Shown here: in pieces, positions 38,072-45,057 of the stretch
How the letters are laid out: each line of letters starts with the position of its first letter
Position numbering within the stretch: position 1 is the stretch's first letter
Assembly (NCBI GenBank): GCA_902765485.1
Contig: CACWZZ010000016.1
Coordinates: 41,991 to 105,990 of the forward strand
Direction: 5' to 3'
From: an uncultured Bacteroidales bacterium
Lineage (GTDB): Bacteria; Bacteroidota; Bacteroidia; Bacteroidales; Paludibacteraceae
Length of the DNA: 64,000 nucleotides
The notes under the pieces: model-generated
Told to the model about the DNA's origin: nothing
The model's input: the letters and a program-made list of their open reading frames with translations, nothing else
Database searches by the model: none
Position numbers and translations under genes: made by a program

Positions 38072-38173
38072 AGGTTAAATGAATTAAATTGGTTAATAAA
38101 TATTGTTAATTAGTTGTTGTTTGCTTTATTTGGTTTCGTTTGGTTTTCTGTTTTTATTTTTTGTGAGGATGAT

Positions 38174-38204
38174 TCTCCGTCTATTAGCCCCGAATTTTAT
38201 TCGG
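38174..38204. repeat. REP-like hairpin element, copy 1 (contains the stop codon of the Y1 gene)
   Basis: CTCCGTCTATTAGC + CCCGAAT-TTT-ATTCGGG. Confidence 0.7.
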
Positions 38205-39231
38205 GTTTGTTCAAAGCCTCGCATATTTCCTCTGCCATTTTATTCATCGCCACACACTCGGCTCTGGTCACATGCGGCTTGTCCGGATCATGCTGCCACG
38301 GCGATAGTATCAACATCCTTCCCTCTGCGACCGCCTCAAACAATCCCTCTGCAGGTTTGTAATACTCGCCAAATCCATTCTCCGCGATATAAATAATGGT
38401 ATGTTTCTCGCGCAGCAACACCTCCAATACCTCTTTCTCTTTCGGACTAATGAACGGCGACACCATCACAGTCCCTTTACGAGCCGCCAGCACACATCCG
38501 TTCATATACTCGCGTAGCCGTGTCGCGTCTCCATGCTGCTCAGCATCTTCCACCCAAATCCTCCGCACATGTACCGGCGAGAACTTCTCTGCCTGCAAAA
38601 TGCCTATATTCCCAATTCCGCTATATTTCTGTCCCGCTATCTCTATATCTCGCTGCACTCTGAAATATCCCGGCATCAACCTTTTCGTTGCTAACCTCTG
38701 CGGGTTCATCTGCACATAGCGGATCATCGTTTGTAGTTGTCCCTTGTGTGACATTGGACGCACAAACGGGCGCTCCGTGAAGATCGGAAATGGGAGGCCT
38801 CCATTCCCTTCTCTCGCATTATTTGCCATTCCCTCTCCGTCCATTAGCCCCGAATTTAATTCGGGATAAATCAACGGAGAATATGCCCGTCCTATTTTCT
38901 TAACGCCCTGCCACAAACTGCGGATTACATTATTTATACTTTGTGTCATCGGCTTGGTGACATAGTATATTACATGCAAGTGATCGGGCATCAAACAATG
39001 CTGTATTACCTTTATCTCCGGATAGTAATGATTGATGCGTAATGCTTCTTCTGTTATCCGGTCCCCAAGTTCTGTCCTTTCCACCGCCGCTTGTTTCGGA
39101 TCATTCTCCGGAATGACAAGCCTCCCCAACAAAGCCTCTCTGCTTGGCACAACCAGCGTAACATGGTAAATGCCGACACCTCTCCATGCCGTTCCCATTT
39201 CTTGCCATTTCCATGTCTCCTGTTCTGCCAT
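38197..39231 (-). CDS. RayT/IS200-like Y1 (HUH) transposase domain fused to a DprA/SLOG-like C-terminal domain
   Basis: HUH motif PDHLHVIYY; Y-motif IRYVQMNPQR. C-terminus aligns by eye to the DprA core (GNIGILQ, VHVRR, GTVMVSPF, TIIYIAENGF, GRMLILSP). Confidence 0.65.
   Translation of the reverse strand: MAEQETWKWQEMGTAWRGVGIYHVTLVVPSREALLGRLVIPENDPKQAAVERTELGDRITEEALRINHYYPEIKVIQHCLMPDHLHVIYYVTKPMTQSINNVIRSLWQGVKKIGRAYSPLIYPELNSGLMDGEGMANNAREGNGGLPFPIFTERPFVRPMSHKGQLQTMIRYVQMNPQRLATKRLMPGYFRVQRDIEIAGQKYSGIGNIGILQAEKFSPVHVRRIWVEDAEQHGDATRLREYMNGCVLAARKGTVMVSPFISPKEKEVLEVLLREKHTIIYIAENGFGEYYKPAEGLFEAVAEGRMLILSPWQHDPDKPHVTRAECVAMNKMAEEICEALNKPE
38835..38865. repeat. REP-like hairpin element, copy 2 (in-frame inside the Y1 gene)
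   Basis: CTCCGTCCATTAGC + CCCGAAT-TTA-ATTCGGG; encodes YPELNSGLMDGE. Confidence 0.7.
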
Positions 39232-39251
39232 TTTCTTTTAGTTTTCGAGTG

Positions 39252-39316
39252 GGGGTACAATTTGTACCCCTCGTCAATCTGTGCTTTTTTCTTAAGGTTG
39301 GGGACAAATTGTCCCC
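39252..39316. repeat. two related perfect palindromes upstream of the Y1 gene
   Basis: GGGGTACAA-T-TTGTACCCC (39252-39270) and GGGGACAA-A-TTGTCCCC (39300-39316). Confidence 0.8.
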
Positions 39317-39380
39317 TGGTCAGTTGGGTAGTAGTACTTAACCACTTCTGTTCCGTTTTTCATTGTTTTTTCTCTACTAC

Positions 39381-39455
39381 CGGCTTACGAGCGGCATACG
39401 AGACGGATACGAGACGATAACTATTAGCGATAACTTAGCGGTCTATCAGCCACTC
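39381..39455. repeat. degenerate 11-bp periodic array
   Basis: GGCTTACGAGC GGCATACGAGA CGGATACGAGA CGATAACTATT AGCGATAACTT AGCGGTCTATC. Confidence 0.55.
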
Positions 39456-39589
39456 TCGCGCCATTTCAATTTATCCTTATTTATGTTCAAACATATACCC
39501 CTCTATATAATAATCAAAATAAAGCCCAAATCTATCACCTCAAATGCAAGTTTTTAAGTTCTTTCATTGATTCTATACTATTCTGCCTA

Positions 39590-40855
39590 TTATTCGATTC
39601 TTCGCAAATAAGCATTGTTACTTTCTTTGAATATTTTGTTAATCTCATCATTTTCAAAGCCTATAATATTGAGCATGCAACATAATAAGATTTTTCTTAA
39701 TTTGTGATTTAAATAATATAATTCTATACCGTCTAAAACATTTTTCTTCTTTCCTGTTGGCAATAAATGTGAATAATGATGTCTTGAATCACAGATACAA
39801 TCTATGTCATGATCTGATAACTCTATAGCGGCAATGTCGGAAAACTTCTCTCTCAATTGAGTTAAAAGCTTTTTAAGACAAGGCTCGTCTTTTATGAAAC
39901 GATAGTAATAACCTTCCACCGCCTGAACCACTACCAGAAAATCCACGCTACTGAACACTCTGCGTCTACTCACACTATCTATCAAATGAGCACGAATTGG
40001 AAACAATTCCTTTTCTGCATACCATTTTTGTATTACCAAGGGAAACTTATCTTTTATAATGTCATACACAAATAAGTAATCCCAAAATCGTTCGCAATTA
40101 TTACTTCTTTCTTTCTCGCTGTCATCAAATATTTCTATAGTGTAGTTCTCTGTTGGATCTGTTTTTTTATCTTTATCAATAAGAAGCAACTTATCACATC
40201 GCACCGAAGTTAGAGTGGCAAAAGATAGAAATTGTTCGAAAAGAAAGACTTTCATATTTGCCTCACGAATCGAAACGGGGTTTGCGAATAAAAAGTTAAG
40301 TGAAGTCTTTTGCTCAAACTCAACTCGCATACCTGTTTTGCCAGTAGTAAAATTGGATTCTCCTGCAATTTTCAAATTACAACCTTCTTCTATCTGTACA
40401 ATTACATTATTTGCTTCTTTGATATCTGCACTACACGAATAACTTTGTTCGTTCCAATGCGCGTGCAGGCAATTCGGTTTAAACCAATATGTTAATTCGT
40501 CAATATATGCAGCAACATCGTAGTTACCTAATTCATTCAAAGACTTAATATGTTTCCCCACCGCAACGATTTGCCCTTTATATTCTGCAACAGCAAAAGG
40601 ACAACTTGTATTTACAGAAATAGACTCATAACAGTTAAATACACTTATTTTCTTCGATTCCGAAGAGACTCCCCAAATAACAGCATAATGAACACTATTT
40701 CTACTCACTAAATGATGTAAAGGATTGCTCTCGCCTAGAGCACCAATTGTCTCAAGGGTGATTTTCCCCTTTTCTACACTTAATGTCCCTGCTACTTGAT
40801 TGTCTGGCGCGTCAGGCAACCACCATAATCCTTTATAGTCGTTGGGCGTCTTCAT
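39590..40855 (-). CDS. ApeA-like protein: N-terminal ApeA-type beta-rich domain plus C-terminal HEPN (predicted RNase)
   Basis: N-terminus YKGLWWLPDAPDNQVAGTLSVEKGKITLETIG; C-terminal Rx4H motif DSRHHYSHL. Confidence 0.6.
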   Translation of the reverse strand: MKTPNDYKGLWWLPDAPDNQVAGTLSVEKGKITLETIGALGESNPLHHLVSRNSVHYAVIWGVSSESKKISVFNCYESISVNTSCPFAVAEYKGQIVAVGKHIKSLNELGNYDVAAYIDELTYWFKPNCLHAHWNEQSYSCSADIKEANNVIVQIEEGCNLKIAGESNFTTGKTGMRVEFEQKTSLNFLFANPVSIREANMKVFLFEQFLSFATLTSVRCDKLLLIDKDKKTDPTENYTIEIFDDSEKERSNNCERFWDYLFVYDIIKDKFPLVIQKWYAEKELFPIRAHLIDSVSRRRVFSSVDFLVVVQAVEGYYYRFIKDEPCLKKLLTQLREKFSDIAAIELSDHDIDCICDSRHHYSHLLPTGKKKNVLDGIELYYLNHKLRKILLCCMLNIIGFENDEINKIFKESNNAYLRRIE

Positions 40856-40955
40856 TAAACTTTATCAATTTTAACAAATCGTTTCCTTATACTTTCTGCA
40901 CATGTATTTAATTCTGATATATTTCGTTTATTTCATCTTTCAACGTGCTTTTAAT

Positions 40956-41750
40956 TTATACTTCTATTTTGTCAACTTTGAGCACCTTATTATACAATAT
41001 TGATTTCTTGAAATTTGCCGCCGGATATGCCTTCAAAATTCTTTCACGAATCAACTTTCTCTCGGCGTCGTATTTTGCTATCTCTATTTTAGAAGCGAGA
41101 TTTTCTTCAGACTTGTTTGCAGGATAATATGTAATGCGTTTTATCATATTAACATCAACCGGTACATTTAACACATTCTTATGTAGATTGTCATTGACTT
41201 TGCCAGGATTTCTAGGGATTATAAAAAATCTTACTTCATTTTCATATTTAAATGCATTTCTTTTTAATGACATAATCTTGATATACTGTTCCTCATTAAA
41301 ATTTTGGAAAAAATCTTGATAATGCGGACTAGATGTCGAATATAGATTGTCTATTTCAGCTTTTTTTAGATTATAATTTACTTTTGCTAGATATACATCA
41401 CACTCCTTTTCTTCTGCAAAAGAAAGTAAACTAGAGATAAAAACTTCTGTTTGAATTACAAGACGTAGCAAGGGGTCGTTATCCCTTTTGTATATTTTCC
41501 AAGAGGCTTCTTCATTTTGCAGATCCATTCTGGCGCAAAAACAATAGATCGTAGGCTGTCTATATCCATTTAACCCAGTGTAATCTGTGTTTAGATATTT
41601 GATCTCATATGGATCATACCAGAGCTCAGGAGAAACAAAACCAATTTGATGTGGCTCTTGTTCTAATATATTCAGTACACGACTTGTACATATATATTTA
41701 TATATGTATGCCGGAACTTTAGGTAAATCAATTAATTTTATCTCTTTCAT
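40956..41750 (-). CDS. DUF2971-like protein
   Basis: IYKYICTSRVLNILEQ..., FVSPELWYDPYE (cf. FNDPFE) and YENEVRFFI motifs. Confidence 0.6.
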   Translation of the reverse strand: MKEIKLIDLPKVPAYIYKYICTSRVLNILEQEPHQIGFVSPELWYDPYEIKYLNTDYTGLNGYRQPTIYCFCARMDLQNEEASWKIYKRDNDPLLRLVIQTEVFISSLLSFAEEKECDVYLAKVNYNLKKAEIDNLYSTSSPHYQDFFQNFNEEQYIKIMSLKRNAFKYENEVRFFIIPRNPGKVNDNLHKNVLNVPVDVNMIKRITYYPANKSEENLASKIEIAKYDAERKLIRERILKAYPAANFKKSILYNKVLKVDKIEV

Positions 41751-41859
41751 ATATATTAAGTTTTTAAGTGTCCTTATATCTTCTCCCTCTCATCCGTCTG
41801 TCTTCCATTAGTCTCCATCGGATGCTCATCGGGTGCTCACTATGACGACGCCGTAACAT

Positions 41860-42182
41860 CTACGGCACGATACCCTGCTTTCTCTTCTCGCTCAACTCAT
41901 GTTTGATATAATCGTACAGCCTCCCTTGTATAGGCTTGTTATATTTCCTTGCCTTCCGCACAGCCTCCTCATATCGTGCCTGCCATTCCGCCTTACGCAC
42001 CTCAGCTCAGCAAAAGCTTTTGCCGTTGGGTGTTCTGCTTTTGCTTTCTTTGTTTTCTTGCTCAACTCCGGCTTCGCGCACACGGCTGCCCATTCCCCGT
42101 TTCCGGGTATCCGCCGTGCATAATGTCTCTGATCCACATTTCCCTGCAAACTATCCACTATATTCACCCACTTCGCTTTCAT
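41860..42182 (-). pseudogene. small conserved-looking gene disrupted by a 5-bp tandem duplication
   Basis: GCTGAGCTGAGG at ~42005-42016 on the coding strand. Removing one GCTGA joins MKAKWVNIVD...AKAFAE to VRKAEWQARYEEAVRKARKYNKPIQGRLYDYIKHELSEKRKQGIVP*. Confidence 0.55.
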
Positions 42183-42193
42183 TTGATTTTCTT

Positions 42194-42784
42194 TTACTCA
42201 AAAAATGTTATGCTATTCATGTAATTCTCATATAACCCTTCTTTTAATTCTAAAATGGAAGGAGACAACTTTTTCACTATTTCTAAGTCATAATTCTTAT
42301 CTACATTTCCGCTTGATTCTAATATTTTATCTATAGCTCGATCAATATCTTCTCTTCCGAGAGATCTGCTTTTCTCCTTAAATGTTAATACTCTTTCCGT
42401 CTTAATCTTTTCTCCAGAAGTATCAAATATATCATACCCGTTTTGAAAAGGGTGTGCAGCACTATCCCTCCGATATATTATATAAATGCATTCATCATCT
42501 GAAAGTGTATCGCATATTTTGTTAAGACATGTAGTTACTTTTAATATATATTTATCCTTACCGAACTTTTGGGATATTTCTTCACTTTTCATTTTTAATA
42601 ATTCAGCAAGTTTAATATAAAATAATTGCTGATACCATCTATCATAGTTGCTACTTAAAGCCTCCGTTACACAAACAAAGTCTAATATCCATTGAATAAA
42701 CAAAAACCTTTCTGTAGGAATCTTACTCGCAACTTGATACTCTTTACCATAGTATATTTCTTCTATAGTTTTTCCTTTAACCAT
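42194..42784 (-). CDS. 196-aa protein with a HEPN-like Rx4H motif
   Basis: IYRRDSAAHPF in a mostly helical-looking protein, AbiV-like size; motif-level evidence only. Confidence 0.4.
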   Translation of the reverse strand: MVKGKTIEEIYYGKEYQVASKIPTERFLFIQWILDFVCVTEALSSNYDRWYQQLFYIKLAELLKMKSEEISQKFGKDKYILKVTTCLNKICDTLSDDECIYIIYRRDSAAHPFQNGYDIFDTSGEKIKTERVLTFKEKSRSLGREDIDRAIDKILESSGNVDKNYDLEIVKKLSPSILELKEGLYENYMNSITFFE

Positions 42785-42799
42785 TTTAACAAACCTTTA

Positions 42800-44704
42800 T
42801 TACACCTTTCTCTTATTGTTTCTTGATTTTTTGAGTATAGAATATCTCATATCTTCCGTTTTTTGCAGAACTCCATTCTTTACTAGATTTGACAAAATTG
42901 TTCTAATACTTTTTTCAGAACTATTGGGACGCAGTATAAGAGCTTTCTTGTAAATTTCTTCTCGTGCTATAGGTTCTTTCTCTTGTTTTAGTACTTCTAT
43001 TACTGCATCTTGAAGAGTACCTTTAAACTGTAATGATTCTTCTATTACATACAGAGATGTCCTTCCTATTGGCTTCAAACGGTTATCTTTACATACGTAG
43101 GTACGTATTTGCTTGCTATTTGAGAATGGATATTGCGGATATTCTTGTTTAAACGCAGCAAACATTTCTTCTATAGAAACAGGTTTGTCTTGTGCTTTAA
43201 CATATTCATACAGAAATTGACGAACATTAACTTTTTCTCCACTTTCCAAATCGCTATACCTTGAATCATCTGAATCTGATATGTTATACAACTTTTTTAA
43301 TAGATAGCCTAAGAACTCTTTTACATCCGGAACGAACTCATGTATTACACCATCTTGCCACAATGAGTTTTTAAAACAGAATCTTTTCCAATCTATGGCG
43401 AAATTTATACCCTTCTTTTCTATTTCTTTTCCTATTTGATATAAAGCTGTATAATAATCAAATTTTGTTAAGACAGAATTACATACAAAGAAGAAAGGAG
43501 TATTATAGTGTATTTCTCCACTTTCTTGATAAGATTGATGAAGCGTAACTATACTATTAGCATCAAGATATAATTCAGAAAAACAAAGTTCTGGATTGAG
43601 TAATCTACATAATATACAGAATCCGTCATACTCATATTGCAACTTTTCTTTTACCGCCAATTTCTCAAATTGTGTATTACTTTCTGTAAAAAAAGAGTTA
43701 TTTAAAAACGGGTAATAGTCCAACACTTCTTGCTTTGTGGTTTCTAACAAGTCATATATGCATGTGTCTAATTTGCAAAAAGTCTGGCGTAACAATTTGT
43801 TGACATATACAGGTAATTTATGAAGTTTGTCTCCTATTTCAGCAACTGACATAGGAGAAGAATAAAACCCAAAATATGAGTAGAATATGTCTAATGCACG
43901 TGGCGTAAAGAACATGAGTAGTATTTTTTCCAATACGAAGAAAACAGGAATTATACCATGTTCCTTTTTATATTTAAAAATAAATTCTATATCGTTAGAA
44001 TTCAGTAGGAAATAATATTTTATAAAAGAAGGGATTTGGTTATCTTCTAATGTAAGAATAAATTCCAACCTTTCAATAAACAATTTCTGAATTCTATACT
44101 CAGGTGAATTCTCTTTGCGAACATCTGTTATTATTGCGTAAATATTGGAATAATATTTCTCTATTCTTTCCAACTCTTTACCTCTTAAATTTTGAACATA
44201 TATATAATGATACAAATTTTTCTCTAGTACATCATCTAGTTGGTCTCCATATTTAGCCTTAATTTTGCATAGTAGAACCTTTTTATTTGCGAGGCTTTCA
44301 CAATTACGAATAAAACGTTCAATCAAATCCCTTGAACGCGGAGCAATTTCATAAGTATTATAAGCTGAAATTAATTGATTATAAGTTCTAATGGAATATT
44401 TTTTCAAAAAAGTCTGGACAGATGATGCCGATGTTCCCTCTATAACTGCTTCATCTAAAAAATATTCCCTGTATTCATTAATATTATCAATAGATAATGG
44501 ATAATTGACAACAATATTTTCCATAAACTCTATTATCTCTGTAGCGGTTTGTTTCCCACAATTAGTAGCAGAAAATATAGTTTCCTTGCTTGTCAAATAA
44601 ACAAGCGTGCAAAAAGCATTATCTAGTTTTAATAATTCAAGAACATTTTTTGCACGAGTAGATAACTGCTTAAATTTTGCTATGTAATATTGCTGCAATG
44701 TCAT
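42800..44704 (-). CDS. 634-aa multi-HTH protein: alpha-CTD-like HhH, sigma-70 region-4-like HTH, two HARE-HTH-like winged helices
   Basis: LSTRAKNVLELL...NCGKQTATEI; RALDIFYSYFGFYSSPMSVAEIGDKLHKLPVYVNKLLRQTFCKL; VSIEEMFAAFKQEYP...; PIAREEIYKKALILRPNSSEKSIRTILSNLVKNGVL. Confidence 0.5.
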   Translation of the reverse strand: MTLQQYYIAKFKQLSTRAKNVLELLKLDNAFCTLVYLTSKETIFSATNCGKQTATEIIEFMENIVVNYPLSIDNINEYREYFLDEAVIEGTSASSVQTFLKKYSIRTYNQLISAYNTYEIAPRSRDLIERFIRNCESLANKKVLLCKIKAKYGDQLDDVLEKNLYHYIYVQNLRGKELERIEKYYSNIYAIITDVRKENSPEYRIQKLFIERLEFILTLEDNQIPSFIKYYFLLNSNDIEFIFKYKKEHGIIPVFFVLEKILLMFFTPRALDIFYSYFGFYSSPMSVAEIGDKLHKLPVYVNKLLRQTFCKLDTCIYDLLETTKQEVLDYYPFLNNSFFTESNTQFEKLAVKEKLQYEYDGFCILCRLLNPELCFSELYLDANSIVTLHQSYQESGEIHYNTPFFFVCNSVLTKFDYYTALYQIGKEIEKKGINFAIDWKRFCFKNSLWQDGVIHEFVPDVKEFLGYLLKKLYNISDSDDSRYSDLESGEKVNVRQFLYEYVKAQDKPVSIEEMFAAFKQEYPQYPFSNSKQIRTYVCKDNRLKPIGRTSLYVIEESLQFKGTLQDAVIEVLKQEKEPIAREEIYKKALILRPNSSEKSIRTILSNLVKNGVLQKTEDMRYSILKKSRNNKRKV

Positions 44705-44904
44705 AAATAGACTTGTAAATCTTTATTTTCTTCAATAATTATTCCTTTCTTCTCTCGTTCTCTCAATACCTCCATCCACAACTCAATCTGTCGTGCGGTG
44801 GTTGTGGTTCTTTTGACAATATCCTTTTCAGTTCCTCCATATCCGGCATGGTCTTGTCGGTTACAACCGCTAAATCTTGATTGTGGCACTATCTGCAATT
44901 GCAA
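44701..44904 (-). CDS. small ORF (67 aa) translationally coupled to the 634-aa gene
   Basis: ATGA overlap at 44701-44704; no motif recognised; true start may be internal. Confidence 0.3.
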   Translation of the reverse strand: MQLQIVPQSRFSGCNRQDHAGYGGTEKDIVKRTTTTARQIELWMEVLREREKKGIIIEENKDLQVYL

Positions 44905-44921
44905 TTGTCGGTCCTTTTTTT

Positions 44922-44949
44922 AGATTTTCCAATCGCGATAGGAAAATCT
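44922..44949. promoter_or_regulatory. 28-bp near-perfect palindrome, candidate operator of the island's first gene
   Basis: AGATTTTCC-A-ATCGCGAT-A-GGAAAATCT, 18 nt upstream of the 67-aa ORF. Confidence 0.4.
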
Positions 44950-45010
44950 ATACTCAAAATATTTATTCAGATCTGCCATAAATAACGTGCAAATCTACAC
45001 GTTAACCACT

Positions 45011-45045
45011 CCCCGCTCACCCCTCGTTTTGAGAGGCAAGCGGGG
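45011..45045 (-). terminator. nested GC-rich stem-loop after uxaC
   Basis: CCCCGCT...AGCGGGG with inner CCTC-GTTTT-GAGG; resembles the in-CDS hairpin family. Confidence 0.45.
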
Positions 45046-45057
45046 ATGCGTAGTCAT

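Follow-up and report, generated by a model that had tools for sequence, protein, structure and literature searches.

An uncultured rumen Bacteroidales bacterium (assembly GCA_902765485.1, 2.1 Mb, 83% complete) carries two neighboring genes that a sequence-only reading had put forward as a candidate two-gene defense module, composed of a DUF2971-like protein and an ApeA-like HEPN effector. The genes lie in a 64,000-nt stretch of contig CACWZZ010000016.1, the whole of which is referred to below as the window. Both open reading frames (ORFs) are present as claimed, one of 421 aa at 39590..40855 and one of 264 aa at 40956..41750, on the same (minus) strand and exactly 100 nt apart. The motifs quoted from the two translations were also all found, namely YKGLWWLPD...VAGTLS...ITLETIG and DSRHHYSH in the 421-aa protein, and YIYKY, WYDPYE and YENEVRF in the 264-aa protein, and they coincide with invariant alignment columns in both families. 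At E ≤ 0.001, the 421-aa protein has 164 database relatives, 36–92% identical among the 120 matches listed, and the 264-aa protein has 80, nearly all of them 39–73% identical. The many relatives, taken together with the invariant motifs, indicate that both ORFs are real genes and not chance ORFs.

Domain content of the two proteins

Profile searches bear out the ApeA-type N-terminus and the C-terminal HEPN domain that had been read from the letters of the 421-aa protein, with both Pfam matches passing their cut-offs. ApeA_NTD1 (PF18862) is matched over profile positions 2–271 of 271 at 120.4 bits (gathering cut-off 25.5; E = 1.3e-34), and HEPN_Apea (PF18739) at 46.3 bits (gathering cut-off 24.4; E = 7.2e-12). 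The protein is additionally matched by two PADLOC models of PDC-S58 (1.8e-45 and 6.6e-42). In the AlphaFold2 (AF2) model, built on 34 relatives and reaching a predicted local distance difference test (pLDDT) score of 85, residues 1–245 adopt a beta-rich form consisting almost entirely of strands, mostly with pLDDT above 80, followed by a helical region (residues 264–418) that bears the Rx4H motif. The codons of this motif, R358-H-H-Y-S-H363, occupy 39767..39784 on the minus strand, and residues D356, R358 and H363 are invariant across the 34 relatives (36–92% identity). Sequence and profile searches of the PDB with the 421-aa protein returned chance matches only, and NCBIfam held no match for either of the two proteins. 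Foldseek with the full-length model gave meaningless matches to pentameric ion channels at a template modeling (TM) score of ~ 0.1 and no solved relative. The confidently modeled ApeA-NTD1 domain (residues 1–245) has no meaningful fold match in the PDB, the best TM score being ~ 0.1.

In 2020, Gao and colleagues reportedly described ApeA as a single-gene defense system. More recent work agrees that ApeA defends as a single gene (bioRxiv 10.64898/2026.01.26.701840; 10.64898/2026.03.20.713152). The characterized members, among them Ec1ApeA and Ec2ApeA, are proteins of ~ 600 aa whose N-terminal and Mid domains are described as mainly helical; assembled into decameric rings, they cleave the anticodon loops of tRNA once a pocket binds 5'-phosphorylated deoxydinucleotides (bioRxiv 10.64898/2026.01.26.701840). 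An alternative target is the genomic RNA of single-stranded RNA phages (bioRxiv 10.64898/2026.03.20.713152). With Ec1ApeA and Ec2ApeA, the window protein has in common the C-terminal Apea-family HEPN domain, the conserved Rx4-6H motif, its nature as a single gene and the location in defense islands. However, at 421 aa and with a beta-rich NTD1, it does not display their three-domain architecture, as judged by comparing the AF2 model with the published description.

A much closer counterpart is the ApeA/BMEI1217 family of HEPN proteins, which are fused to ApeA-NTD1, a region of ~ 300 aa made up mostly of beta strands, and are embedded in restriction-modification (R-M) operons (Anantharaman et al. 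2013, PMC3710099). The window protein has the same two-domain architecture, supported by strong profile matches, and shows no substantial difference from this family or from PDC-S58. The relatives, however, reside in or beside R-M operons, whereas the window copy has no adjacent R-M genes. By analogy, the 421-aa protein is predicted to be a stand-alone HEPN RNase activated by infection, an NTD1-type "minimal" ApeA. Transformation with a 467-aa "minimal" ApeA homologue has failed, presumably because of toxicity (bioRxiv 10.64898/2026.03.20.713152). The name PDC-S58 was found in the literature only as a PADLOC call in a survey of Streptococcus thermophilus.

The 264-aa protein had been called DUF2971-like on the basis of its motifs. 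This holds in the sense of a divergent relative, but not of formal family membership. Pfam DUF2971 (PF11185) reaches 16 bits against a cut-off of 22 (E = 0.033), and aligns with the C-terminal part of the profile only; 23 of 26 relatives also show a weak DUF2971 match (best E 4e-4). The PADLOC profile PDC-S31, on the other hand, matches at 4e-22, with residues 8–241 aligned to profile positions 9–236 of 245. In the alignment with the 26 relatives, invariant positions are K18, Y19, W44, D46, Y48, E49, E81-A-S-W84, Y87, Y169, E170, E172 and R174. The AF2 model (pLDDT 90, predicted TM score 0.87) places E170-N-E172, encoded at 41235..41243 on the minus strand, at the N-terminal edge of a predicted strand (172–179), as is the case for the motif III ExE in ADP-ribosyltransferases. 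We infer that motif II is supplied by the invariant tyrosines. A Foldseek search of the PDB with this model ranked DarT in the top four places (probability 0.94–0.54), followed by cholera toxin A, at TM scores of 0.3–0.4 and E values of at least 2e-3. Sequence and profile searches of the PDB gave chance matches only, PHROGs offered one weak match of unknown function, and a literature search for the name PDC-S31 found nothing.

The statement that no biochemical role is known for DUF2971 turned out to be outdated. A published prediction places these proteins in the HYE clade of ADP-ribosyltransferases, with sequence similarity to DarT/AbiGi, a motif-I histidine that is poorly conserved, a conserved tyrosine and ExE as the conserved motif III (PMC12522546). 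Moreover, Aristaios, a 316-aa DUF2971 protein from a Lactococcus plasmid, is an experimentally proven single-gene system of anti-phage abortive infection (PMC11381338). PDC-S31 proteins are likewise single-gene products of ~ 250–320 aa with a putative ADP-ribosyltransferase-like fold, which likens them in description to Aristaios; the window protein differs in falling below the Pfam DUF2971 cut-off and in lying outside any R-M operon. DarT, the DNA ADP-ribosyltransferase toxin of DarTG, provides the best structural matches, but at ~ 10% identity, with the motif I histidine replaced in the window protein (K18-Y19) and with no DarG/macrodomain antitoxin gene adjoining the 264-aa gene. Based on the model, the 264-aa protein is predicted to be a divergent DUF2971 relative with a DarT-like ADP-ribosyltransferase fold and a stand-alone defense candidate.

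Genomic contexts of the two families

PDC-S58 and PDC-S31 are both single-gene candidates in PADLOC, where PDC candidates are defined through their embedding in R-M, BREX or DISARM loci (bioRxiv 10.1101/2024.01.29.577857). The set of ApeA loci was collected by an alignment-based scan of metagenome contigs together with look-ups of individual relatives, a single-protein query having given one locus. It comprises 90 loci, exclusive of the window's own strain, at 30–92% identity, 78 of which have at least 900 nt upstream of the gene. None of the 90 contains an ORF matching the profile hidden Markov model of the DUF2971-like subfamily. The upstream neighbors of the ApeA relatives instead fall into 38 unrelated clusters. 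Annotated neighbors include hsdS, hsdR, an M+S fusion, an N6_N4 methylase, MmeI/Eco57I-type enzymes and type III Res helicases, as well as UvrD helicases, a KAP NTPase, an OLD-TOPRIM protein, a CAP12-type TIR protein and T5orf172. Reciprocally, none of the 24 DUF2971-like loci, which represent seven distinct contexts at 42–68% identity, carries ApeA.

Sampling of whole genomes leads to the same picture. Among 401 evenly sampled genomes of the order, a PDC-S31-like gene is present in 54, ApeA_NTD1 in 11 and the combination in four, an overlap not beyond chance (hypergeometric p = 0.13). Of these four, the window's own genome is the only one in which the two genes adjoin each other; the remaining three have them on separate contigs or at a distance of 115 kb. 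A phylum-level sample added 13 genomes with ApeA_NTD1, one of which also has a PDC-S31-like gene, 359 kb off. Altogether, adjacency was found nowhere in ~ 800 sampled Bacteroidota genomes except the window's own, and in none of the 22 other ApeA-bearing genomes. The sequence-only reading had itself proposed to judge its two-gene module by such co-occurrence statistics, and to abandon it if the families did not occur together elsewhere. In these loci and genomes, they are neighbors nowhere outside copies of the window locus, and the claim of a module fails this test. We do agree that the pair is not a named defense system, the reason in our view being that these are two separate systems.

The closest ApeA offers a greater level of detail about how the gene has moved. 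It is 92% identical in amino acid sequence and is found at locus L001, in the rumen Bacteroidales metagenome-assembled genome RUG12032, downstream of hsdM and then hsdS. Nucleotide identity with the window (93.7%, blastn) begins 15 nt into the ApeA ORF and reaches ~ 90 nt beyond its stop, corresponding to 39498..40840 on the minus strand, and stops short of the spacer and of the DUF2971-like gene. Since homology is limited to the ApeA ORF and its 3' flank, ApeA has evidently moved as an exchangeable cassette of its own. The only loci that hold both genes (L002–L008) are 100% identical copies of the window locus, and come either from further rumen metagenomes or from the assembly to which the window belongs.

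These data bear directly on the idea of a true two-gene module, whether a sensor or regulator paired with an effector or a toxin-antitoxin-like pair. Such a module would fit the shared strand and the short gap without a terminator, as well as the intact state of the pair in all shown places with this exact allele, and another HEPN family (pEK499_p136-like) has been reported in operons with ADP-ribosyltransferase-like enzymes (PMC3710099). Nevertheless, it appears distinctly improbable. Apart from the lack of adjacency in either set of loci or in the sampled genomes, relatives of both proteins retain their catalytic motifs in many contexts without the partner, and the homology of the ApeA cassette begins at its own ORF start and not in the partner. 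Moreover, none of the 30 genes flanking 17 broader PDC-S31-like genes of Bacteroidota matches a HEPN Pfam family. Sixteen of these 30 could be assigned (hsdR, an MmeI-like enzyme, RelA_SpoT, UvrD, Fic, a kinase, TPR proteins and housekeeping genes) and 14 have no Pfam match at all. The survey thus does not support a link between DUF2971 and HEPN at the superfamily level, though the unannotated neighbors leave a small opening for one.

The DUF2971-like relatives do have a preferred position of a different kind. Of their seven contexts, surveyed in L011–L021 and L116–L123, five are type I restriction operons in which the gene is flanked by hsdM and hsdS, and its stop overlaps the start of hsdS or directly adjoins it. 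In the remaining two, the gene comes last in an island, beside a polysaccharide locus. A Fic gene lies directly upstream in three contexts. One of the hsdM–DUF2971-like–hsdS operons rides on a mobilizable element (Mob_Pre, Toprim). The embedding in R-M operons that is expected of a "guilt-by-embedding" candidate such as PDC-S31 is therefore seen in the relatives, but not in the window copy.

PrrC is a protein guarded by the restriction enzyme EcoprrI. The position between hsdM and hsdS resembles that of PrrC and suggests that the DUF2971-like proteins, too, are guarded by a restriction enzyme; its regularity across the subfamily is striking and invites this idea. Taken one step further, the DUF2971-like gene could be a PrrC-like accessory of type I R-M systems, its copy in the window being an orphan and ApeA the only functional defense. 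The tight coupling to hsdS in the relatives speaks in favor of this explanation, and no Methylase_S (hsdS) was detected in the window's genome (G000), which indicates that the gene is here free of the type I context preferred by its relatives. At 83% completeness, however, an R-M system of that genome may be unassembled. Two relatives (68% and 53% identical) lie outside R-M operons with intact motifs, the window copy is itself intact with every invariant residue present, and Aristaios, a DUF2971 protein, defends alone (PMC11381338). We consider the accessory explanation unlikely on balance. Contig C18 of the same genome contains a 1042-aa frame with HSDR_N; no complete type I system was seen.

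The island and its possible co-transcription

Both genes are part of a 6,959-bp insertion (38097..45055) located between the stop of uxaC and the start of kdgK; two congeners lack it. The gene uxaC directly adjoins kdgK in two genomes from the same genus and in another from the same family. The junction in the alignment with one of these genomes, where L111 2192|2193 corresponds to window 45056|38096, shows a clean insertion, and target-site duplications and terminal inverted repeats were sought at the island ends and not found. From ~ 39.3 to 45.0 kb the GC content is 31–39%, compared with ~ 52% in the flanks. All genes of the island are on the minus strand. Its other cargo consists of a RayT-like gene (weak match to NCBIfam REP_Tyr_transpos), a 196-aa protein, a small gene and a 634-aa protein whose C-terminus forms a DUF7669 winged helix. 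The RayT-like gene (344 aa, 46% GC) is located at the kdgK-proximal island end, and a 41-nt hairpin-containing repeat occurs near it at 38174–38214 and 38834–38874.

The small gene (41860..42182, minus strand) is damaged in the window, which lacks 31 nt at 42001/42002 that are present in L002, L003 and L004, where the gene forms an intact 117-aa ORF. A 5-bp duplication was considered as the lesion and rejected; as the GCTGAGCTGA repeat also occurs in the intact copies, the lesion is either a 31-nt deletion or an assembly variant. A deletion of this kind, relative to other assemblies of the locus, would be in line with one or both of the defense genes being decaying, non-functional cargo of an old insertion. 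Yet both ORFs are full length for their families and keep all family-invariant residues, and decay is accordingly the least credible of the explanations considered here, and very improbable.

The organization of the island leaves room for joint expression of its genes. The 100-nt spacer between the two genes (40856..40955, minus strand, 24% GC) contains neither a terminator-like hairpin nor a -7 box. More generally, a search of the island's minus strand gave no terminator-like hairpins, and the spacers between its genes are free of the Bacteroidetes -7 box (TAnnTTTG); one such box is found upstream of the 634-aa gene, at 44997. A sigma-70 promoter scan is uninformative for Bacteroidota. Judging from this pattern, co-transcription of the whole island is possible, the distribution of boxes being compatible with a long transcript while giving no evidence for one.

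Two probable single-gene cassettes and their possible action

The locus can be best explained as a low-GC defense island, acquired horizontally, in which two mutually independent single-gene anti-phage cassettes happen to be neighbors, and we assign this reading a probability of roughly 80%. Several observations weigh against it. The two genes share a strand and are separated by a gap of 100 nt that displays no terminator-like hairpin and no recognizable promoter box, and they could well share a transcript in this genome. All copies of the 100%-identical DUF2971-like allele (five places shown, on seven metagenome contigs) adjoin ApeA, although all of these represent the locus of one strain. 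On the side of the proteins, the DarT fold match of the 264-aa protein is weak (TM 0.3–0.4), and by comparison with published descriptions the NTD1-type architecture of the 421-aa protein is set apart from the laboratory-characterized ~ 600-aa ApeA class.

A related proposal is that the two genes have joined, in this lineage, into one functional unit with a common transcript, and that DUF2971-type ADP-ribosyltransferases and HEPN RNases are neighbors beyond chance. For example, the action of the ADP-ribosyltransferase-like protein on nucleic acid or on nicotinamide adenine dinucleotide (NAD+) may make a small-molecule cue for NTD1. We hold this to be very improbable.

The domain content, the conservation of the catalytic motifs, the foreign origin of the island and the missing linkage of the two families elsewhere are shown by the data; for the two separate cassettes, enzymatic activity, trigger and a role against phage are suggested by analogy with characterized relatives. 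In the ApeA-like protein, two HEPN domains would dimerize and thereby form the Rx4H RNase site, with the beta-rich NTD1 possibly serving as the infection sensor, such that a cue sensed away from the active site switches the enzyme on. Once activated, the enzyme might cut tRNA anticodon loops or phage RNA, bringing phage replication to a stop. The DUF2971-like protein, if it acts as Aristaios and DarT do, would ADP-ribosylate DNA, or a different essential target, with NAD+ as substrate at infection, leading to abortive infection. Because no macrodomain antitoxin adjoins the gene, the protein is expected to be self-restrained or, in its usual context, to be held by the type I enzyme. We hypothesize that the NTD1 class (PDC-S58) may respond to a trigger other than the deoxydinucleotides or RNA that cue the ~ 600-aa ApeA, since the beta-rich domain is without structural relative in the PDB and the class is set apart from characterized ApeA.

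As it stands, the locus matters little beyond contributing one member from a rumen Bacteroidales genome to each of two catalogued single-gene defense (candidate) families. It also represents one more case of single-gene defense cassettes being shuffled among islands centered on restriction-modification.

Two further observations concern the islands of the relatives. A gene of the T5orf172/MUG113 (GIY-YIG-like) type recurs at the upstream edge of ApeA islands, at L001 2443–3084, L022 2068–2709, L024 252–893 and L031 2–922. The islands sharing this edge otherwise differ, with different R-M systems adjoining them, and the recurrent gene may mark a shared hotspot or provide a mobility function. 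At L128 (G244:C12:68400-77100), a PDC-S31-like gene is preceded by an MmeI/Eco57I-type enzyme and followed by a RelA_SpoT-domain protein, all on the same strand, which makes this locus another small defense island.

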